A stretch of DNA of 64,000 nucleotides from positions 969,759 through 1,033,758 of the forward strand of contig JBMORU010000001.1 of assembly GCA_049322215.1 (NCBI GenBank), in the 5' to 3' direction. Made by a program: the position numbers and the translations under genes. Positions 3,149-49,245 of this stretch are shown one piece after another (the stretch's first letter is position 1; every line of letters starts with the position of its first letter). Under the pieces are notes generated by a model. It ran no database searches. It was not told the origin of the DNA and was given only the letters and a program-made list of their open reading frames with translations. Source of the stretch: Patescibacteria group bacterium (GTDB taxonomy: Bacteria > Patescibacteriota > WWE3 > UBA101185 > UBA10185).

Positions 3149-5797
3149 TTATTTAGAAACGCGAAGTTTTATGCGCACATCACCTTTACGGCCATCTTCG
3201 TCTTCGGCTACAACATTAAATTCATGCTCGCCAGCCTGCGATTCAGGAAATGTTAAGTTATATCCATATGGCTCAGAAGAATCATCTGCAATTTTTTCTC
3301 CATCAATATAAAATCTTACTTCATCAATATCGTTTGGAGAAGAGACCTCAACCTTTAGTCTAAACTTTAAAGGAACATAGTCACCATCTTTTAAACCAAC
3401 AATATGAACTTCAGGGTTTACATCTTCTTTAAGCTTGCCGTCTTCATATTTAAGTGCTGATTTACTTGTAGGAGGAAAATATAAGTCGTTTCCATTGTAG
3501 TTTTCGCCAACCCAAGCATCTACGTCGTCTTGCCATTCGGGAAGTTCGGCAGTGATTTTAATGTATGTGTTTACTTCAGACTTGTCGGCATTTCTACAAG
3601 AGTCATTAGCTAACTTACCGTCTTTTTCACAAACTTCTACGCTTTGATACCATTCACTGGGCGCCGTAGGTTCGGTACCCTCAATAAACCACTCCTGGCG
3701 GCGAGAAAACTCACCATAGGGAAGTGCTCCCGTTAATTCATCCACTTCAATTTTTTTTACATTTTCAGGAGGCTCAAATTTTTCGTTTTCTTTATCTGCT
3801 AAATACTCACGCATGAATCTATTACCTATGGGTGTAGCTCCAGTTATACCTGATGCTACAAAAGGATTCATTTTGTCATTGTTATTGTTACCAACCCAAA
3901 CCCCTGCCACTACAGAGGGTGTGTATGCCATAAAGTAGTTATCTCGTTTATCATCGGTTGTACCTGTTTTTACAGCAACTTGATGCCCTGGAATATTTAG
4001 CAAACTGCCAGAACCAAAAGCAGCAGAACGAGCACCGTCATCAGACAAAATATCACTCATTAAAAAGGCAACATCTTCTCCAATAACTTGTTGCCCACCA
4101 TTATCTCTCCAACTGTATAAAATATCTCCGCGAGAATTTTTAACTTCTAAAATTCCTGTAGGTTTTCTGTAAACGCCTTTTGCTGCAAGAGTAGAGTATG
4201 CCCCTGTCATTTCTAAAAGCTTAGTTTCTCCGCCTCCTAAAGTTAATGACAAACCATAGCGAGTGGGGTCAGAAAAAGTTGTTATACCCATTGCTTTTGC
4301 TGTATCTATCATAGATTGTATTCCTACAATTTCTAAAGCTTTAACGGCGGGTATGTTCAAAGAATTACCCAAAGATTTTCTAAGAGAAGTAGGACCTTTA
4401 AAAGTGCCGTCATAATTTTCTGGTGTATAAGGCTTGCCCGCATCAGCTTTTTCAAATGTTGTTGGAACGTCTAAAAAGGGGTAAGCAGCAGTATAACCTT
4501 GAGAAAGCATTGTTGCATAAGTAATAGGCTTTATAGAAGATCCAGGTTGCCGGTTAGCTAAAGCAACATTAAGTTGAGGTTCGAAGGTACAACTGTTATC
4601 ACCAGTAATTCCTGAAATACAGCCTTCAGGCTCAGATTCGGCAAAGTAATCTTTAGAACCTACCATAGCCAAAACCTGGCCGGTTTTCGCATCTAAAGCA
4701 ACTAAAGACCCGTTTCCTACATTTAAGTTTTTAGCAGCATCAACTTCTTCTTTTACTATATTTTGTGCCATATCTTGAACATCTAAATCTAATGTGGTTG
4801 TTACCTGCAAACCACCCTGTTCTACCATTTCCTCACCGTATATTTCTACTAATTCATCTCTAACAAAAAATACAAAATGGGGAGCTTTAAAACTTGTTAA
4901 TGCAGTATCAAAAGATAAGTCTACCTGTTTTGCTGCTTCATACTCATCTTTGTTTAAATAATGCCATTGACCGCCTTCTTCCACCCAGCCATTATCAGTC
5001 ATTAAAAATAAAACATAATTTTTACGCTCTAAGCCTGCATTAGGGTCAGAACTGTAGGGTGAATATCTGCTTGGGCTCTGAGGTAACCCAGCTAAGTAGG
5101 CTGCCTCTGCCAAAGTTAGTTCTGAAGGGTGCTTGTTAAAATAAGATTTTGCGGCAGTTAAAATACCATAATTTTGACCACCATAAGGAGTTTCGTTCAA
5201 ATACATTTGAAGTATTTCATCTTTAGAATATTTATTTTCCAGTTGAAGCGCCAAAATAAGTTCTTTTACTTTACGAGAAATTGTTTGTTCTTGAGATAAA
5301 AGTGTGTTTTTTACTACCTGTTGTGTAAGAGTAGAACCACCCTGCAACCCTTCACCTAAAACTATATTACGTGTGGCTCTTAACATACCCCGCAAAGAAA
5401 ACCCTTGATGCTGATAAAATTCAGCATCTTCAGTTGCTAAAGTTGCTTGAACAACATATGGTGAAACATCTTCTAAAGAAACCAACTCGCGATTCTTTTC
5501 GCCATAAACTTCGAAAATAGAGGTTCCATTACGATCGTAAAGCTTTGTTGATAACTCAGCGTCTCTATTAAGTAATCTATCGGGGGTAGGTAAATCTCTA
5601 GAAAATACAGCCAATAAAATAACTACACCTAAAACACCTACCAATATTGAAAACAATGAAAAAGATGCGAGATAAGTTAAATACAATAGTGTCTTAGACC
5701 CCTTATATTTTGTATTAGCTTGAGGTTTTGGGGGTCGGTACGGTGTATACTTTCTCTTTGTTTTTCCACCAAATTTTTTAAAAATTTCCAAAGACAT
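3149..5797 (-). CDS. class A penicillin-binding protein (transglycosylase + transpeptidase) with a roughly 300-aa C-terminal Ig-like extension. The start is revised to the ATG at 5797.
   Basis: TM anchor LLYLTYLASFSLFSILVGVLGVVILLAVF. GT51 motifs EDAEFYQHQGF / GGSTLTQQ. Transpeptidase motifs SSIKP (SxxK), SLN and KTGTT. The listed ORF start at 6166 reads through antisense of the 5922 gene and is not credible. Confidence 0.8.
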   Translation of the reverse strand: MSLEIFKKFGGKTKRKYTPYRPPKPQANTKYKGSKTLLYLTYLASFSLFSILVGVLGVVILLAVFSRDLPTPDRLLNRDAELSTKLYDRNGTSIFEVYGEKNRELVSLEDVSPYVVQATLATEDAEFYQHQGFSLRGMLRATRNIVLGEGLQGGSTLTQQVVKNTLLSQEQTISRKVKELILALQLENKYSKDEILQMYLNETPYGGQNYGILTAAKSYFNKHPSELTLAEAAYLAGLPQSPSRYSPYSSDPNAGLERKNYVLFLMTDNGWVEEGGQWHYLNKDEYEAAKQVDLSFDTALTSFKAPHFVFFVRDELVEIYGEEMVEQGGLQVTTTLDLDVQDMAQNIVKEEVDAAKNLNVGNGSLVALDAKTGQVLAMVGSKDYFAESEPEGCISGITGDNSCTFEPQLNVALANRQPGSSIKPITYATMLSQGYTAAYPFLDVPTTFEKADAGKPYTPENYDGTFKGPTSLRKSLGNSLNIPAVKALEIVGIQSMIDTAKAMGITTFSDPTRYGLSLTLGGGETKLLEMTGAYSTLAAKGVYRKPTGILEVKNSRGDILYSWRDNGGQQVIGEDVAFLMSDILSDDGARSAAFGSGSLLNIPGHQVAVKTGTTDDKRDNYFMAYTPSVVAGVWVGNNNNDKMNPFVASGITGATPIGNRFMREYLADKENEKFEPPENVKKIEVDELTGALPYGEFSRRQEWFIEGTEPTAPSEWYQSVEVCEKDGKLANDSCRNADKSEVNTYIKITAELPEWQDDVDAWVGENYNGNDLYFPPTSKSALKYEDGKLKEDVNPEVHIVGLKDGDYVPLKFRLKVEVSSPNDIDEVRFYIDGEKIADDSSEPYGYNLTFPESQAGEHEFNVVAEDEDGRKGDVRIKLRVSK

Positions 5798-5866
5798 CGT
5801 TGAGTAATTATAGCAATTTAAAACCAATTTTTCATGACTACACACTAGATTACTATGGGGTTTAGA

Positions 5867-5874
5867 TGTATAAT
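5867..5874 (+). promoter_or_regulatory. extended -10 promoter (TGTATAAT) for the lipoprotein gene at 5922
   Basis: TGnTATAAT lies 48 nt upstream of the ATG; RBS AAGGAGAG. Confidence 0.4.
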
Positions 5875-5921
5875 ATAAGGAGTATCGATACTTTCGGATA
5901 GTCATAAGGAGAGTTTGACAA

Positions 5922-6560
5922 ATGAATATTAAAAAATTTGCTGGTCGGGTTTTGCTCATGCTTGCGGTATTGATCTTGATCGGTTGCCAACGACAAGAGC
6001 GGATTTCGATCCTGACCTTTGTTGCAACTTTCACCCCCACACCAACGGTTACGGCAACACCCCTTCCGACTGCAACGCCAACCTTGATCCCGATAGCTAA
6101 TGCTACGGAAGAACCCGAAGCAGTGGCGATTGCAACAACCCCAACAGCAGGCGAACAGGCTTTCATTGACGCCGTTAATGGGTTTGCAAACTCTGAGGTA
6201 GGCGAATGGGTCTTAAGCGACGTTGAAAACCCTCAAGAAGTTACTGGTGACGCTATTATAGGCATTGCCCGAAACATTTTGGCAGCGGTCTACGCCCAAT
6301 TGCAGGAGCAAGGAGCTTTGCCGGAAGACATGCCTACCCTGGAAGATGCATTAGAAGTTTTAAGCACGCCAGAGAAAGCGTTAGCCTTCGGTAGCTGCTT
6401 TAATCCCGCAATCGAATCCTACGAGGAAAATCAAAATGCAGCTGCGCTCGCGGAACAGCTTGCCTACTGCATCGAAAACGTAGACGAATACGAAGGAAAT
6501 CTCGATTTGCGTCGGGCAGTGACAGATTTCATTATCAATCAAATCACAACGGAGGAATAA
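5922..6560 (+). CDS. putative lipoprotein (212 aa; lipobox LIGC; Thr/Pro-rich linker), GC-rich island
   Basis: Signal peptide MNIKKFAGRVLLMLAVLILIGC, then TPTPTVTATPLPTATPT linker. About 52% GC by hand count in 60-nt windows at 5941-6060, against about 27% in a 60-nt window in recG (8301-8360). Confidence 0.6.
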   Translation: MNIKKFAGRVLLMLAVLILIGCQRQERISILTFVATFTPTPTVTATPLPTATPTLIPIANATEEPEAVAIATTPTAGEQAFIDAVNGFANSEVGEWVLSDVENPQEVTGDAIIGIARNILAAVYAQLQEQGALPEDMPTLEDALEVLSTPEKALAFGSCFNPAIESYEENQNAAALAEQLAYCIENVDEYEGNLDLRRAVTDFIINQITTEE

Positions 6561-6561
6561 A

Positions 6562-6675
6562 ATGATTAGCGACAACGCCATGTTGATTCTGATTTTAGTT
6601 ATCATTGTTATTGTGGCACCCTGGGACAAAATCCTTGCTGGTGTTTTTAAACGCAAAGATGATAACGAGAAATAA
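6562..6675 (+). CDS. 37-aa single-TM micropeptide (MISDNAMLILILVIIVIVAPWDKILAGVFKRKDDNEK), co-transcribed with the lipoprotein
   Basis: RBS GGAGGAATAAAATG, 1 nt after the lipoprotein stop. Hydrophobic core plus basic C-terminus. Directly followed by a terminator. It is below the ORF-track cutoff. Confidence 0.4.
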   Translation: MISDNAMLILILVIIVIVAPWDKILAGVFKRKDDNEK

Positions 6676-6682
6676 CTAACCA

Positions 6683-6735
6683 AAGGTCATATGTTATATA
6701 CTTTCAAATCGTATAACATATGACCTTATTTTTTT
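6683..6735 (+). terminator. intrinsic terminator: 17-19 bp perfect inverted repeat AAGGTCATATGTTATATAC / GTATAACATATGACCTT, then T8
   Basis: Read directly from the sequence; it closes the lipoprotein-micropeptide unit. Confidence 0.8.
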
Positions 6736-6878
6736 GCTATAATGCTATTAACAAATTCCAGAAAGAGGCCAGTTTAGACATGAAAGCACTTTTTTATCCC
6801 TCTTCCCGTGTTTTCAGGTCTTTTTTTATTGTTTATCCCACATACAAAAATAGGTAATAATGTTATATACTGCTTTAA

Positions 6879-8078
6879 ATGGCTAAAGTATCTACTAACC
6901 CTGAAAAAATTAATGAAATATTAACTCGAGGAGTGCATGAAGTTTTCACCAAAGAAGACTTAAAGCACAAACTTGAAAGTGGAAAACAGCTGCATATAAA
7001 ACTTGGCATAGATGTTACCGGCCCCTTAATTACTTTAGGGCATGCTGTAGTACAACGCAAATTAAGAGACTTTCAAGAGCTTGGACACAAAGTAACTTTA
7101 ATAGTTGGGGATTTTACAACACTAGTGGGAGACCATTCGGACAAAGTAGACATGCGTGCCGAAACAAACACACAAGAAATAAGTCAAAATGAAAAAACTT
7201 ATAAAGAACAATTTTTTAAAACCGTTATAAAAGAACAAACCGAAGTTAGACACAACTCTGAATGGCTTAAGGACTTAAATTTTAATGATGTTATAGATTT
7301 AGCGCAGCAATTTACAATAGCGCAAATGCTTGATAGAGAAACTTTCATGCTTAGATATAAAGAAAACAAACCAATAGGGCTTGATGAGTTTTTATACCCA
7401 TTAATGCAAGGATATGATTCGGTAGCTTTAAATTGTGATGTGGAGCTGGGAGGCACTGATCAAACGTTTAACTTGCTTGCAGGACGTAAGCTAATGCCAC
7501 ACTTTAATTTAGCCCCACAGTCAGCTATAGCAATGAAGTTATTAACCGGTAATGATGGAAGGCCTATGGGTAAATCATTAAAAAACTACATTCCAGTTAT
7601 GGACGACGCAAACGATATGTTTGGCAAAGTTATGTCTATAGTAGATGAAATAATTTGGGAATATTTTGAGCTTTCAACAAGAGTACCAATGAGCGAAATA
7701 GAAAAGATGCGTAAAGAGGTTGAAAGCGGTGCAAATCCGATGGAGTTTAAAAAGCTTCTAGCTAAAGATATTGTTACTTTTTATCATGGCAACGCCAAAG
7801 CAATAGAAGCAGAAAAACATTTTGAAAAAACCGTACAGAATAGAGAAATGGCTGAAGAAGACATTTTAGATATAGAAACAGACGCATACGCTACTGTGTT
7901 TCAGGCTATTCAAGAGGCTCAGTTTGAAGGAATTTCTAATTCAGAGATAAAAAGAGTAATCGAGCAGGGAGGCGTAGAGTTAAACGGAGAAAAAATACTT
8001 GACCCAAACAGAATTGGAAACTTTAATAAAGGAGATATTATTAAGTTTGGAAAAAGAAGATTTATAAGGGTTAAATAA
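6879..8078 (+). CDS. tyrS: tyrosyl-tRNA synthetase
   Basis: Class I HIGH-like motif (TLGH), KMSKS-like PMGKS, and a C-terminal S4 domain (EIKRVIEQGGVELNGEKILD...). The S4 domain distinguishes TyrS from TrpS. Confidence 0.8.
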   Translation: MAKVSTNPEKINEILTRGVHEVFTKEDLKHKLESGKQLHIKLGIDVTGPLITLGHAVVQRKLRDFQELGHKVTLIVGDFTTLVGDHSDKVDMRAETNTQEISQNEKTYKEQFFKTVIKEQTEVRHNSEWLKDLNFNDVIDLAQQFTIAQMLDRETFMLRYKENKPIGLDEFLYPLMQGYDSVALNCDVELGGTDQTFNLLAGRKLMPHFNLAPQSAIAMKLLTGNDGRPMGKSLKNYIPVMDDANDMFGKVMSIVDEIIWEYFELSTRVPMSEIEKMRKEVESGANPMEFKKLLAKDIVTFYHGNAKAIEAEKHFEKTVQNREMAEEDILDIETDAYATVFQAIQEAQFEGISNSEIKRVIEQGGVELNGEKILDPNRIGNFNKGDIIKFGKRRFIRVK

Positions 8079-8081
8079 TTT

Positions 8082-8291
8082 ATGCTAGATAGGTTATTAA
8101 TAAAAATAGGCTTGAAAAAAAGGGAACCAAAGGTAGTGGTGCTTGCCAAAAAGGCAAAGAAAAAGATAAAAAAAACAGTAAAACAATTATGGAAAAAGGG
8201 TGTCATAAAAAAATTTTTAGTTGTACTGCTTGCTTTAGCTTTTCTTGCCACTTCAGTATTACCCTATGTCATTAGCGCCTACGGGTTTTAA
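8082..8291 (+). CDS. hypothetical small Lys-rich protein with a C-terminal TM segment (69 aa)
   Basis: Starts 3 nt after the tyrS stop, and its stop overlaps the recG ATG (TAATG). No clear SD sequence. Whether it is a real gene is not established. Confidence 0.3.
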   Translation: MLDRLLIKIGLKKREPKVVVLAKKAKKKIKKTVKQLWKKGVIKKFLVVLLALAFLATSVLPYVISAYGF

Positions 8292-10433: not shown

Positions 10434-11366
10434 ATGTACTTTAACAAAAAAATCACGACTTTGCTTTTATGGCTGCTTTTGATTATTTTGATGGCAGCAT
10501 GTGGAAGTGCGGACGATGCGGCAAGTGCTTTGCGCACGGCTGCGGATGCGGTAGAAAGCGTAGGTGAGGCCTCAGAAGATGTTAATGAACTAATTAATAA
10601 TCTTCAACAACCACCTCAAGCAAATAACACTGCACAAACAACCACAACAGACACTACAGGAACAACCGAACAACCCCAAAGTACGCCTGCAACACAAACA
10701 TGTAGTGGACAGGTTCAGTTCAACAACACAACCAGCATGGAGCTCTATGAGCATTACCCTGAGCTTGTCAACATGCAACCTACTCAGGCCAACACACTAA
10801 GCACATCATTTGGGCAGCTGGTATTTTACAACTACACCAACGTCCAAATCGACATGCAGGCCATTTCCAGTGCAGTCGAAAAACTGTACAGCATGGTAGG
10901 TAAGCAGGCTTTTCGGCTAAATACTGGAGGTACACCATACTGCCTTGTTGCAAAATCGTTCCCTAGTAGAACGTTGGTTATTGTTCCTCGCGAAATCGGC
11001 CGTTCGGAACTGACACCTGCGCAAAGCCACACCAACGCGGGCACATTTTTGGCAAGCAACGGCGCGTTTTCTTTCGTGTACTTTGAAAGGGGTTTCGAAG
11101 AAAGAGCCGATCAGGCAGTAAACATGGCAGCCATATTCACAGAGCTATGCAACGTACACCTGGGCATTGTAAGTCCATATTACGATGCAGAGGGTCCAGA
11201 CTGGTTCTGCAATGATTACATTGTGGGAAGCACGTTTAAAATTTTTGGCTTAGAAAGCGACACCAACGGTATTGCAACCAGGGCTAAAAACAACGGTGCT
11301 GACAATTTCTTCTATGTAGTCGATTTTAATGACTATATGGACACGGCACTGTTTAACATCGACTAA
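10434..11366 (+). CDS. lipoprotein, paralog A (310 aa; lipobox MAAC), GC-rich
   Basis: Signal peptide plus Cys. Shares motifs with the next two genes: MELYEHYPELVNMQP, LVIVPREIG, ELCN, DWFCNDY. I counted about 63% GC in 10501-10560. Confidence 0.6.
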   Translation: MYFNKKITTLLLWLLLIILMAACGSADDAASALRTAADAVESVGEASEDVNELINNLQQPPQANNTAQTTTTDTTGTTEQPQSTPATQTCSGQVQFNNTTSMELYEHYPELVNMQPTQANTLSTSFGQLVFYNYTNVQIDMQAISSAVEKLYSMVGKQAFRLNTGGTPYCLVAKSFPSRTLVIVPREIGRSELTPAQSHTNAGTFLASNGAFSFVYFERGFEERADQAVNMAAIFTELCNVHLGIVSPYYDAEGPDWFCNDYIVGSTFKIFGLESDTNGIATRAKNNGADNFFYVVDFNDYMDTALFNID

Positions 11367-11511: not shown

Positions 11512-12522
11512 ATGAAAAAAGCAATTGCTTTAGCTTCGCTAATGTTTTTATGGCTGTTAACAGCATGTGCAACAGGGGATGCAAGTTCGTCAAAAAGTGC
11601 AACTGACACTATTTTGGATGAAATTGCGGCAAACATCGTGGAAAGTGATTCTAAGCCTTCAACTGGCCAATTTCCACCACCTCCGCAGGCACCACCTTTA
11701 AATACAAACGCAAGTGGGGATTCAAACAGGGCTGCTTTGACATTGCCAACCACATCTGTGACAAATGCCGTGCCAAATACTACTGAGGTTCCGGCATACG
11801 GTTTGAGGTACGTTTCGTTTGAGAGCATGGAATCTTCAAACGTAGATATGTACGCTCATTTTCCTGCGCTGCATAACTATACCCCGTGGCAAAACTTTAC
11901 AGTAACCTCGGGGGGAATTAGCGTTACATTCGTTAATTTCAACCAAAGCATTAACCTCAACCAAAATGTACTACAACACTTTTTGGATGGGTTAGCTACA
12001 GCATCACAAAGTTGGGTGAATGTTACCAGCGTTGACGGTACCACATACGACCTGCGCATTTCAAAGTCCCAGAGCATTACTGTTATGGTTGCTCCGTACG
12101 ACATAGGTACATCTGATCTTATGAGTGATGAACATACGCTTGGTAACTACCCCGAACAACGCATTCAGGGATACTCGTTAATAACTGGAAGTGGTATTCT
12201 TGGCGTGGTAAAAAGCGATGGTGGAAACGGAACAAATGACTTAATTTTAACTGAAGCATGCAACAGCTTCATTGATTTAAGTCCCAATGGCTTTTACGCA
12301 GAAGATATGGAAATCGCCATTTACAGCAACACCTCTATTGTTCCTGGGGACGCGTTTTGTAACATGTATGCACGCTCTAGCTCTTACACTTCTGGAGGAC
12401 ATGTTACAAATCACCAAGAGCTGTACAGCTTTATGAGCACGCTTACTGTTTTTGGTTACCAGTACATGTATTTGCCTGAGCAATTATTTGGCGGGTACAT
12501 AACACAGTATGTAACAAACTAA
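11512..12522 (+). CDS. lipoprotein, paralog B (336 aa; lipobox LTAC)
   Basis: Motifs VDMYAHFPALHNYTP, ITVMVAPYDIG, TEACNSF, DAFCNMYA. Confidence 0.6.
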   Translation: MKKAIALASLMFLWLLTACATGDASSSKSATDTILDEIAANIVESDSKPSTGQFPPPPQAPPLNTNASGDSNRAALTLPTTSVTNAVPNTTEVPAYGLRYVSFESMESSNVDMYAHFPALHNYTPWQNFTVTSGGISVTFVNFNQSINLNQNVLQHFLDGLATASQSWVNVTSVDGTTYDLRISKSQSITVMVAPYDIGTSDLMSDEHTLGNYPEQRIQGYSLITGSGILGVVKSDGGNGTNDLILTEACNSFIDLSPNGFYAEDMEIAIYSNTSIVPGDAFCNMYARSSSYTSGGHVTNHQELYSFMSTLTVFGYQYMYLPEQLFGGYITQYVTN

Positions 12523-12528
12523 TATACA

Positions 12529-12573
12529 GGTTCAACTTTTAGGAAAAATCCCTACAAGTTGAACCTTTTTTTT
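12529..12573 (+). terminator. intrinsic terminator (GGTTCAACTT ... AAGTTGAACC + T8)
   Basis: Perfect 10-bp stem plus T-run. Confidence 0.7.
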
Positions 12574-12605
12574 ACTTAAAAGAAAAACCTTTTCACGTGC
12601 AAGAG

Positions 12606-12662: not shown

Positions 12663-13493
12663 ATGAAAGGTAAAGCAACTCTGTATGTAGTAATACTGCT
12701 TCTCGTGGTAGCGTTGTTAAGCGGATGTACCAATGAAGAGGCTGTTTCGACTTTGACAACTGTAATTGAGGATGCAACAGGCAGTACTCAAGTAGAAAAC
12801 ACAAATCCAGACCAAGGCGGCACTATAAATGTTAGTGGCACGGCCAACCTGGATATTTATGCACACTATCCACAGTTGGCTAATGTGACTCCATTAGAGG
12901 ATTTCACGCTTACATCACCTGCAAGCTACGGTTATTCCGTACGCATTGTGAATTACAGCCATTTATCTGTAAACTCCGCTGCGGCCGGTCAATACCTTGA
13001 CTTGTTGCACTGGTTTGCGTGGAACAAAGTCACAGCTTTGGATATGAAAAATGTTGACCATTATATTTACATAAAGAATGTGCCAACTACCCAGCATGTT
13101 TTAGTAATTGTGCCCCAAGAAGTAGGTGCTTCGGTACTTATGCCAGAAGGAAACAATGTTAGAGGGGGCACACAAACTGGCACAAACGGTACGTTTGCAT
13201 TTTCTATGTTTAACGCGCAAACGCTTGATGTAAGCGAAAAAGGCAAAAATGAACTGAGGTTACTAGTTGAATTATGCAACTCATTCATTGGTGCCGGCAA
13301 TAATGGTTACAACTCTGGAGAAAGCGATGCTTTTTGCAATTCATATGCTACTGCTACGGTGCTAAAAGCGTTTGGTCTCAAACAAAATCTACAAGAAGTA
13401 ATTGACGCCTCTAAAGATGGCCAGTGGGGAAGTTATACCTTTATGTATATCAACTCCTGGGACGCATATATAGGCGCGCAAGTAACTAACTAA
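12663..13493 (+). CDS. lipoprotein, paralog C (276 aa; lipobox LSGC)
   Basis: Motifs LDIYAHYPQLANVTP, VLVIVPQEVG, VELCNSF, DAFCNSYA. Confidence 0.6.
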   Translation: MKGKATLYVVILLLVVALLSGCTNEEAVSTLTTVIEDATGSTQVENTNPDQGGTINVSGTANLDIYAHYPQLANVTPLEDFTLTSPASYGYSVRIVNYSHLSVNSAAAGQYLDLLHWFAWNKVTALDMKNVDHYIYIKNVPTTQHVLVIVPQEVGASVLMPEGNNVRGGTQTGTNGTFAFSMFNAQTLDVSEKGKNELRLLVELCNSFIGAGNNGYNSGESDAFCNSYATATVLKAFGLKQNLQEVIDASKDGQWGSYTFMYINSWDAYIGAQVTN

Positions 13494-13501
13494 TAACTAA
13501 A

Positions 13502-13556
13502 GGCCAAAAGAGTAAATCCACTCATAATGGAAATTCATTCTTTTGGCTTTTTTTTC
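13502..13556 (+). terminator. intrinsic terminator (GGCCAAAAGA ... TCTTTTGGC + T9)
   Basis: Inverted repeat plus T-run. Confidence 0.65.
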
Positions 13557-14225: not shown

Positions 14226-14912
14226 TTAGGCACCATAAGATGCAGTAGTACCCAAAGGATCAAGCTGACCGTAAATATTTTGCATTTCCTGAAGGGCAGC
14301 ACGGGCGCGTGTAATACGATGGTTACCGGCAGAAGGTTTAACATCAGGAAGTGCTAAGTGGGCGTGTGTGTCCACATGCTCTATCATCTGCGTTGTAACC
14401 AACATCAAGACCCTAATCTGGAAAATGGCACACTCTGTTGATACAGTTATTTGTTGTGCACCAAAGCCTTTCCCAATCGATGCATTTAAACCCCGGGCTA
14501 TTCCCAAAATGTACTCAGCAGCCTCATCCATTAGGGGTTGATGCGTTCGAGTAAGCACTGGACCTAAATCAACGACAGTGTTAAGGGCTAGACCCAACAC
14601 GTTGATACGCTGCTCAGATTCCGTTTTTGACAAATTATGCCCGGTGGTAGGAAAAACAGACAAAACTGTGTCTACCAGCGCTATAACAGCCCATTCAAAC
14701 GCTTCAAGCACTCTTTGAGCATCTGGGTTATTTTTAGCTGCATACTCACGCATTCTGTTTCGAGCAATTTTAATTTTTTTGTAGAATTTCATTCCCTTTG
14801 CATCTTCTGGGGGTTCGTCATCTACAGAAAAAGTTAAAAGCCAAAACAGAGTTGAGAGCGCAGTTAAATTAAATGCACCCCGCAACAAATTACCTATTGT
14901 AAGCCTCTTCAT
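14226..14912 (-). CDS. hypothetical protein with an N-terminal TM/signal segment, GC-rich
   Basis: RBS AAGGAGAATGAGTTAAATG. A CTATAGGG(tgc)TATAAT promoter-like element lies upstream on the minus strand at about 14967-14990. I counted about 53% GC in 14281-14340. Confidence 0.5.
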   Translation of the reverse strand: MKRLTIGNLLRGAFNLTALSTLFWLLTFSVDDEPPEDAKGMKFYKKIKIARNRMREYAAKNNPDAQRVLEAFEWAVIALVDTVLSVFPTTGHNLSKTESEQRINVLGLALNTVVDLGPVLTRTHQPLMDEAAEYILGIARGLNASIGKGFGAQQITVSTECAIFQIRVLMLVTTQMIEHVDTHAHLALPDVKPSAGNHRITRARAALQEMQNIYGQLDPLGTTASYGA

Positions 14913-48717: not shown

Positions 48718-48792
48718 ACAAAAAAGTCTAAAGTTTTTACACAAACACAACAATGTAAAAACCTTAGACCTGTAAACTACGCCGAATTACGG

Positions 48793-49245
48793 TTACAAAG
48801 GGGCACTAACGTGCAGTAGCAACATGCCCATTTCACCAATTGGCCACCAAGCCTCATCATGGCATACACGCCCTTTACCGCTGTCTTTTTCAGGGTTAAG
48901 CACCGTGTGTAAAAACTTTTCTTCATCTGCCATAGAGGTGGGCAATGTCAAAATAAGATCAACATTTGGACTGCTGCGCTGAGTGTGCTTCCACGAAAGC
49001 CAGTGCAAATTCGCTCTGCTTCTGGTAAACGCCAGGTCAGCAAGCCTACTTAAAAATCCAACCCTAATAGCTAATCTGCGCAAAAGCACAGGTAGGGGAC
49101 GTCGATCAACAACGGTTACACTAAGAAAACCTGCATCCTCAACGTAAAAATCATAAACAACTTGTCCAGGAATAGCCTTTTGTATACGCAGAAACGGCAA
49201 AAGACTCTTGTCTACCTTTAAACCCTCATATACTTTATTTCGCAT
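48793..49245 (-). CDS. hypothetical protein (150 aa), GC-rich
   Basis: RBS AAGGAGAGA. I counted about 52% GC in 48841-48900. CCTATAGTG lies upstream on the minus strand. Confidence 0.45.
   Translation of the reverse strand: MRNKVYEGLKVDKSLLPFLRIQKAIPGQVVYDFYVEDAGFLSVTVVDRRPLPVLLRRLAIRVGFLSRLADLAFTRSRANLHWLSWKHTQRSSPNVDLILTLPTSMADEEKFLHTVLNPEKDSGKGRVCHDEAWWPIGEMGMLLLHVSAPL

Follow-up and report, generated by a model that had tools for sequence, protein, structure and literature searches.

In a 64,000-nucleotide stretch of contig JBMORU010000001.1 (positions 969,759 to 1,033,758, assembly GCA_049322215.1; hereafter the window) from a Patescibacteria group bacterium, the gap between the divergently transcribed genes for a class-A penicillin-binding protein (PBP, carrying Transgly and Transpeptidase domains) and tyrosyl-tRNA synthetase (TyrRS; gene tyrS) holds a cassette of two open reading frames (ORFs): a 212-codon lipoprotein gene (5922-6560, plus strand) and a 37-codon ORF for a hydrophobic micropeptide (6562-6675, plus strand; product MISDNAMLILILVIIVIVAPWDKILAGVFKRKDDNEK). 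TyrRS relatives assign the organism to candidate division WWE3, the nearest other lineages being 61-74% identical. On balance, we favor the interpretation that this is probably a lineage-specific, horizontally acquired bicistronic envelope cassette, inserted into the divergent promoter gap between the PBP gene and tyrS. Its sequence features suggest that it most likely serves as an accessory, variable cell-surface module interacting with phage or with a host or partner cell, and not in core metabolism. Its parts are as follows.

5867-5874, plus strand: putative cassette promoter, a TG directly abutting TATAAT (5869-5874), as read from the sequence; the same in the second strain described below.
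5906-5911, plus strand: Shine-Dalgarno sequence AAGGAG, 10 nt 5' of the lipoprotein ATG.
5922-5987, plus strand: lipoprotein signal peptide through the lipobox L-I-G-C (Cys22).
5988-6146, plus strand: Thr/Pro-rich low-complexity stalk, residues 23-75, modeled with low confidence.
6147-6560, plus strand: acidic, all-helical C-terminal domain, residues 76-212, and stop codon.
6551-6555, plus strand: Shine-Dalgarno sequence GGAGG of the micropeptide, within the final lipoprotein codons (translational coupling).
6683-6735, plus strand: intrinsic-terminator-like hairpin with arms at 6683-6698 and 6712-6727, followed by A and seven T residues (6728-6735).

Both ORFs are set apart from the surrounding genes by their composition. 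The lipoprotein coding sequence has a GC content of 48.5%, with a peak of 51% over 6001-6300 and flanks of approximately 35%. The initial annotation of this region had described 5922-6735 as about 50% GC throughout; that figure applies to roughly 5950-6550 and not to the whole span, the micropeptide coding sequence having 36.8% GC overall because of its Ile, Leu, and Val content. Third codon positions (GC3) of core genes in the window average 0.254 +/- 0.029, with a maximum of 0.328 (n=53); the corresponding values are 0.467 for the lipoprotein (z 7.4; binomial P 2e-11 versus core genes) and, in spite of its low overall GC, 0.459 for the micropeptide (z 7.1; binomial P 0.0055). The GC excess resides in codon choice, beyond what Ala, Pro, and Thr content alone accounts for, and the match in third positions between micropeptide and lipoprotein points to a common origin of the two ORFs. 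Genome-typical codon usage had been named beforehand as a result that would speak against a foreign unit; usage instead departs from the genome norm in both ORFs, and the description of the unit as compositionally foreign is borne out by GC3 values 7 standard deviations above those of core genes together with strong Shine-Dalgarno sites.

The mode of translation initiation follows the same division. AGGAG or GGAGG lies within 22 nt of the start in 7/7 GC3-atypical ORFs, as compared with 5/42 typical genes (Fisher P = 9e-6). Many native operon-first genes lack a Shine-Dalgarno sequence and have instead, 12-15 nt 5' of the ATG, a hexamer resembling TATAAT (TATAAT for PBP, TATACT for TyrRS, and TAAAAT for RsmD, among others), a layout which suggests that these genes may yield leaderless mRNAs. 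Leaderless-type sites of this kind occur at 5807-5812 (minus strand) and 6866-6871, and upstream of 13589, 15678 (minus), 41542, 44297, 48114, 58480 (minus), and 59066 (minus); the layout recurs at the PBP and TyrRS genes of three relatives (L005, L014, and L042).

Comparison with relatives indicates that the cassette interrupts an otherwise conserved locus. The gene order PheT, PBP (minus), TyrRS (plus), RecG is kept in WWE3 and in more distant Patescibacteria. The divergent PBP|TyrRS synteny block (L005-L051) reaches contigs labeled Paceibacterota and Woesebacteria, and is unusually deep for genomes this divergent. In some relatives (L005, L014, L042, L015) the gap between the two genes measures only about 120-250 nt, with back-to-back -10 elements; in others (L006, L007, L009, L011, L013, L054-L057, L058) it is filled by other, mutually unrelated ORFs, and L004 has membrane ORFs upstream of TyrRS. 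No Pfam family was identified in the mutually unrelated gap ORFs; the one in L054 and L058 is HD-hydrolase-like in appearance. Absence of the insert from the same locus in related strains had been proposed as a check, and its outcome is uniform: no relative of the lipoprotein or micropeptide occurs at these loci, the junction lacks the cassette in every other WWE3 relative examined, and the lipoprotein gene is missing beside the orthologous PBPs of 10 or more WWE3 relatives. GC3 was measured for eight cargo ORFs (from L006, L007, L013, L054, L058, and L009; L011 was left out), and 7/8 exceed their flanking core genes, for example at 0.40 versus 0.27-0.29 in L054, 0.50 versus 0.27 in L007, and 0.57-0.59 versus 0.42 in L006. 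The exception is the ORF of L009, with a GC3 of 0.34 as compared with 0.45 for its TyrRS. The presence of unrelated cargo in different lineages makes the junction a recurrent insertion hotspot, the cassette being the cargo of one lineage.

A single additional strain carries the cassette. A word-indexed search of 5.8 billion protein clusters returned one homolog of the lipoprotein (P0001, 94% identity), and a full phmmer search of 1.84 billion representatives with the C-terminal domain returned P0001 as its sole match. This protein is encoded on a 10.7-kb contig (L002) from run ERR15087771, whose DNA is about 98% identical to the window and whose gene order matches it, the 37-codon ORF and the hairpin included. 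The window itself corresponds to a Logan contig of 196.7 kb assembled from run SRR32167788; both cassette junctions are common to the SRR32167788 and ERR15087771 assemblies, so that a chimera can be excluded. An NCBI metagenome-assembled genome (1.11-Mb contig, locus tag ACOZAO_05315), probably the same genome, has PBP, lipoprotein, and TyrRS sequences identical to those of the window. Among the relatives and databases searched, the cassette is thus restricted to one species-level lineage.

Conservation of the micropeptide in a relative had likewise been put forward as a check on the unit, and the ORF is kept in the only available relative that bears the cassette. Between the window strain and L002, the ratio of non-synonymous to synonymous divergence (dN/dS) is 0.04 for the micropeptide (five synonymous changes and one non-synonymous), with probabilities of P = 0.018 for transitions only and 0.002 for all changes. 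The lipoprotein has a ratio of 0.30 (15 synonymous and 15 non-synonymous changes), falling to 0.17 in its helical domain; values for PBP and the N-terminal part of RecG are 0.03 (30 and 3) and 0.08 (13 and 4), respectively. The ratios for the micropeptide and lipoprotein indicate that both are real coding genes under purifying selection. The lipoprotein is also the fastest-evolving protein of the neighborhood in this strain comparison, with 94% identity as against 99.7% for PBP. Around the lipobox (5976-6010, versus 7501-7535 in L002; residues 20-30), 16 substitutions are clustered within 30 nt in strains that otherwise diverge by about 2%, changing IGCQRQERISI in the window to ASCERGERVSV in L002; this suggests local recombination, or diversifying selection just past the Cys predicted to be lipidated.

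The lipoprotein, described at first reading as having a linker rich in Thr and Pro, has the expected layout. Its N-terminus (MNIKKFAGRVLLMLAVLILIGC) comprises a basic n-region (MNIKKFAGR), a hydrophobic core (VLLMLAVLILI), and the lipobox at residues 19-22, a charged n-region, h-region, and lipobox of the form [LVI][ASTVI][GAS]C all lying within the first ~35 residues, as in established lipoprotein signals; L002 has L-A-S-C at the equivalent site. Three other lipobox proteins in the window (starting at 10434, 11512, and 12663) suggest that the organism has an active lipoprotein pathway. Thr and Pro make up 42% of the 53-residue stalk, in keeping with the earlier description. The C-terminal domain has a predicted pI of 4.05, with 27 Asp or Glu residues as compared with 4 Lys or Arg, and two Cys residues; no internal repeat is evident in it. 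A single-sequence AlphaFold2 model is all-helical, with a mean confidence (pLDDT) of 64, rising to 80-90 over residues 110-190.

The micropeptide begins one base past the lipoprotein stop codon (TAA, 6558-6560), and its GGAGG lies inside the lipoprotein gene, so that the tight coupling and ribosome-binding site claimed for it are upheld. A frameshift fusion of the two products was considered and rejected, since the arrangement is the same in both strains and represents classic stop/start coupling. The peptide consists of a single hydrophobic helix and a Lys/Arg-rich C-terminal tail, and is predicted to adopt an N-out/C-in topology from the positive-inside rule and the basic tail. The Logan gene caller independently predicts the ORF, which the NCBI record apparently leaves unannotated, given that the PBP, lipoprotein, and TyrRS accessions run consecutively.

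Searches for related families returned almost nothing. Querying Pfam and NCBIfam with the lipoprotein gave nothing beyond a match of 13 bits between the Thr/Pro stalk and an S-layer model; the C-terminal domain, searched against Pfam at E <= 10, gave only a chance match to RBD_SIN1. PHROGs matches to the lipoprotein were confined to the low-complexity stalk, and PADLOC returned none. Scans of IMG/VR and the JGI metagenomes with the lipoprotein recovered no relative, and a blastn search of the PLSDB plasmids with the cassette recovered none. Sequence matches in the PDB were at chance level (E >= 0.15), and a Foldseek comparison of the lipoprotein model with BFVD gave none at E < 0.2. For the micropeptide, a degenerate DNA pattern for PWDKILAGVF had 0 matches in the JGI metagenomes, and tblastn against the INPHARED phages identified no match.

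Signals at the ends of the cassette are consistent with an autonomous transcription unit. The TATAAT at 5869-5874 is a plausible -10 element of the cassette, judging by its sequence and position. Of the extended -10 promoter that had been claimed, both the hexamer and the TG are present; the TG, which abuts the hexamer directly, is not at the canonical spacing of TGnTATAAT. The element lacks a clear -35, and a consensus promoter scan did not call it. At the other end, the hairpin begins 8 nt 3' of the micropeptide TAA. Its stem, initially described as a perfect inverted repeat of 17-19 bp, is in fact 16 bp perfect plus one G-U pair, with an 11-nt loop; the run of seven T residues following it is as one would expect of a terminator. 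The predicted RNA folds at -21 kcal/mol (z -6.9), and 0/200 shuffles fold equally well, such that sequence and folding give a stable stem-loop and a U-run just past a stop codon, the hallmarks of an intrinsic terminator. Its AT-rich stem and 11-nt loop explain why a simple terminator scan (loop 3-8) missed it. In L002, the hairpin contains one uncompensated mismatch and still has a folding energy of -17.1 kcal/mol; tolerance of this mismatch is more in keeping with a terminator than with a sequence-specific operator. Gene-end hairpins of comparable size occur elsewhere in the window (12517-12577, 13499-13551, and 48726-48769), which makes the cassette palindrome the tidiest case of a local terminator style and no oddity. 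In an Rfam scan of 5400-7200 the hairpin alone was matched, to miRNA precursor models at E ~0.3.

If these signals act as predicted, the cassette would be transcribed from its own -10 element (5869-5874), and the lipoprotein would be exported, lipidated on Cys22, and kept at the outer surface of the cell membrane. Its stalk of ~50 residues (~15 nm if extended, and perhaps glycosylated) would project an acidic four-helix-type domain into or beyond the wall. Ribosomes ending the lipoprotein would re-initiate one base later on the 37-residue peptide, which would insert in the predicted N-out/C-in orientation, stoichiometrically coupled to the lipoprotein and probably acting as its membrane partner or stabilizer. 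The hairpin would then halt transcription, preventing read-through from the insert into tyrS.

Several observations weigh against reading the unit as a recently acquired envelope cassette. Neither a donor nor an integrase, tRNA, flanking direct repeat, or transposase could be identified: there is no tRNA in the window and no recombinase ORF in the 1.08-kb gap, and searches for flanking direct repeats gave only short matches compatible with chance. Classical genomic islands exceed 5-10 kb, encode an integrase or recombinase, and are bounded by a tRNA or direct repeats; the cassette has none of these features. Several WWE3 lineages share the trend toward GC3-rich accessory genes, and the high GC3 of such genes could partly reflect causes besides recent transfer. 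Conservation of the micropeptide is seen over six substitutions and in one close relative; the structural model of the lipoprotein is of moderate confidence and yields no functional clue; and promoter and terminator activity, lipidation, and contact between lipoprotein and micropeptide are all predictions from sequence.

Genomic islands and horizontal gene transfer are reported to be common in Patescibacteria, accounting for up to 13% of genome length (PMC12455944). The cassette resembles the islets and islands of Patescibacteria, the candidate phyla radiation (CPR), in consisting of deviant accessory genes, mostly unannotated in those islands, within a streamlined and syntenic backbone (PMC12455944). 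It differs from them in its size (~0.9 kb), in having two ORFs and no mobility gene, and in its placement in one particular divergent promoter gap, where various other WWE3 lineages carry cargo of their own. As a type of unit, it is an ordinary small accessory cassette with ORFan envelope proteins, probably acquired horizontally.

An origin as a phage-derived moron for superinfection exclusion is an unlikely but credible alternative: the lipoprotein would be Ltp-like and block phage DNA injection, and the micropeptide would be a second membrane factor of the superinfection exclusion (Sie) type. The succession of anchor, spacer, and acidic helical domain matches the published description of Ltp from Streptococcus thermophilus phage TP-J34, which has a lipid moiety, a serine-rich spacer, and a helical repeat domain, and in which negative charges matter (PMC3952083). 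Like the ltp moron, the cassette has the layout of a putative promoter-gene-terminator unit of deviant composition (PMC3952083), and the strong acidity of its C-terminal domain and the rapid evolution of the lipoprotein relative to its neighbors are also compatible with this origin. However, the lipoprotein has no sequence or fold similarity to Ltp or to phage proteins: Pfam, which would cover related Ltp-type proteins, gave no match, nor did PADLOC, IMG/VR, INPHARED, BFVD, or PHROGs beyond the stalk. Unlike ltp, moreover, the cassette is outside a prophage, between chromosomal housekeeping genes (PBP and TyrRS) with no phage genes nearby, and carries a coupled second ORF; the lack of an evident internal domain repeat is a further difference.

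It is also conceivable, though doubtful, that the lipoprotein and micropeptide form an undescribed two-component surface module of an ultra-small episymbiont, for example for phage exclusion or host attachment, and that the PBP|tyrS gap is, at the same time, a dedicated, integrase-independent landing site in WWE3 for GC-richer accessory genes. If true, this would imply that insertion proceeds by an uncharacterized mechanism with a preference for this site, for example natural transformation and subsequent recombination at the PBP|tyrS junction.

A regulatory link to the neighboring gene appears quite improbable. In E. coli, LpoB modulates PBP1B, and by analogy the lipoprotein could reach the synthase of the adjacent class-A PBP by its disordered linker, with the micropeptide as a membrane cofactor. 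The cassette divergently adjoins the Transgly+Transpeptidase PBP gene, and its product resembles LpoB and LpoP in size (212 residues), lipobox, long disordered linker (~50 residues), small globular domain, and location beside a class-A PBP gene. Yet relatives that lack the cassette retain orthologous PBPs (62-64% identical), with unrelated genes or none in the gap; PBP and lipoprotein differ, as noted, in how far they have diverged between strains; and the lipoprotein model is all-helical whereas LpoB is alpha/beta. The organism, moreover, is presumed to have no outer membrane, and no homology to Lpo activators was found. Adjacency to PBP is better explained by the insertion hotspot.

The micropeptide might, very improbably, be a type-I-toxin or holin-like membrane-damaging peptide controlled by the palindrome or by an antisense transcript, with the lipoprotein incidental. 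Its size, single hydrophobic helix, and charged C-terminal tail are typical of such peptides, and a weak minus-strand promoter-like match (6619-6592) lies inside the ORF. Promoter-like matches in the region, however, number 2 as against a shuffle mean of 3.8, none is convincing as an antisense promoter, and Rfam and PADLOC gave no match. Translation tightly coupled through an in-gene GGAGG is atypical of type I toxins, and the hairpin with its T-run is at the position expected of a terminator, with comparable gene-end hairpins present elsewhere in the window. A further parallel is provided by CydX, KdpF, and AcrZ, small single-pass membrane proteins whose genes accompany that of a larger partner and are often overlooked in annotation. 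The micropeptide is like them in its length (~30-50 residues), single transmembrane helix, and shared mRNA, and unlike them in that its partner is a lipoprotein, not an enzyme or transporter complex, and in having no family match.

Finally, the possibility that the cassette is a GC-rich spacer in which ORFs occur by chance, or which was misassembled, might be suggested by the lack of homologs outside the lineage and of any family assignment. It is highly improbable and already largely refuted by identical junctions in two assemblies from different runs, by dN/dS values of less than 1 for each ORF, and by the presence of strong Shine-Dalgarno sites, a terminator, a canonical lipobox, and a helical domain modeled at a pLDDT of 80-90.

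The sequences flanking the cassette on either side include the following.

5798-6166, minus strand: 123 spurious codons at the N-terminus of the listed PBP ORF, overlapping in antisense the promoter region and the Thr/Pro part of the lipoprotein gene.
5807-5816, minus strand: TTGCTATAAT, the extended -10 of the PBP gene, marking the left edge of the inserted segment.
6735-6743, plus strand: TGCTATAAT, another perfect extended -10, 136 nt upstream of the TyrRS start; it overlaps the last part of the T-run.
6866-6871, plus strand: TATACT, 7 nt 5' of the TyrRS ATG, marking the right-hand backbone.

The listed PBP ORF (3149-6166, minus strand) has 1005 codons. That its first 123 codons are spurious, as the initial annotation proposed, is supported both by gene callers (Logan and NCBI give 882 residues, with an ATG at 5797) and by homologs, which align only from residues 2-37 of the 882-residue form onward. 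The extension (…VGVVAIATASGSSVALAIGIKVGVAVGRGVAV…) reads as the antisense of the ACN/CCN-rich stalk and is a shadow ORF. The PBP TGCTATAAT element ends 9 nt 5' of the ATG at 5797, a leaderless-type start; L014 and L042 have the same extended -10 arrangement, and L005 has the TATAAT hexamer only. On the other side, the TATACT at 6866-6871 is probably the native leaderless-type TyrRS promoter, and L005 carries an identical TATACT just upstream of its TyrRS start.

Only two copies of TTGCTATAAT occur in the 64 kb, inverted and flanking the cassette (5807-5816 and 6734-6743); two or more copies arise in 9/100 shuffles. As tyrS has its own TATACT at -13, the right copy could be a second tyrS promoter, an insertion relic, or chance. 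The pair was considered as terminal inverted repeats of a mobile element and rejected, since the left copy is the positionally conserved PBP promoter and no transposase accompanies it. An exact 12-mer, ATGTTATATACT, is found at 6691-6702 (left arm and loop of the hairpin) and again at 6860-6871 (the tyrS -10 region); it may represent an insertion-boundary duplication, or chance in AT-rich DNA. Folding of the 5' leader and of the 6744-6878 spacer gave z values of -0.3 and -1.0, respectively, indicating no structured RNA, and a T-box leader upstream of tyrS was rejected in view of the lack of an Rfam match.

The cassette is not unique in the window, which includes at least two further GC3-rich ORFan insertions. 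Three paralogous ORFan lipoproteins lie between RecG and RsmD (10434-11366, 11512-12522, and 12663-13493; 310, 336, and 276 residues, respectively), genes that neighbor each other directly in WWE3 relatives. A lipobox, a low-complexity linker, and AAGGAG are present in all three, GC3 values are 0.38-0.46, and motifs including ELCNSFI and DAFCN recur in their C-terminal parts; no homolog of the first was found outside the lineage. The trio has the appearance of another insertion like the cassette, only larger. An ORF at 14226-14912 (minus strand; GC3 0.36, AAGGAG, no Pfam family) lies between RsmD and a conserved gene that directly neighbors RsmD in L013, and another at 48793-49245 (minus strand) has a GC3 of 0.39, AAGGAG, and no Pfam family.

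Between tyrS and recG, an ORF at 8082-8291 encodes a Lys-rich protein of 69 residues whose transmembrane helix is C-terminal; its conservation is 100% in L002 and weak in L009 (49% over 41 residues). It is called by the Logan caller; its sequence is absent from the NCBI record, where the accession numbers have no gap that could hold it. The translations of a long minus-strand cluster at 20533-41513 read as several prepilin-like proteins with GFTLIELL motifs, an ORF resembling prepilin peptidases, and secreted proteins of large size. The cluster is likely a type IV pilus locus; such loci are typical of the CPR.

CPR/Patescibacteria rely on cell contact, and their surface proteins are almost wholly uncharacterized. 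A cleanly bounded, recently acquired surface cassette is therefore a tractable candidate for strain-specific envelope functions. The more general value of the locus exceeds that of the cassette itself: one promoter gap is re-used across WWE3, and acquired and native genes differ in both GC3 and initiation mode. The hotspot and the GC3/Shine-Dalgarno contrast could aid the recognition of foreign genes and the correction of annotations in WWE3 genomes.

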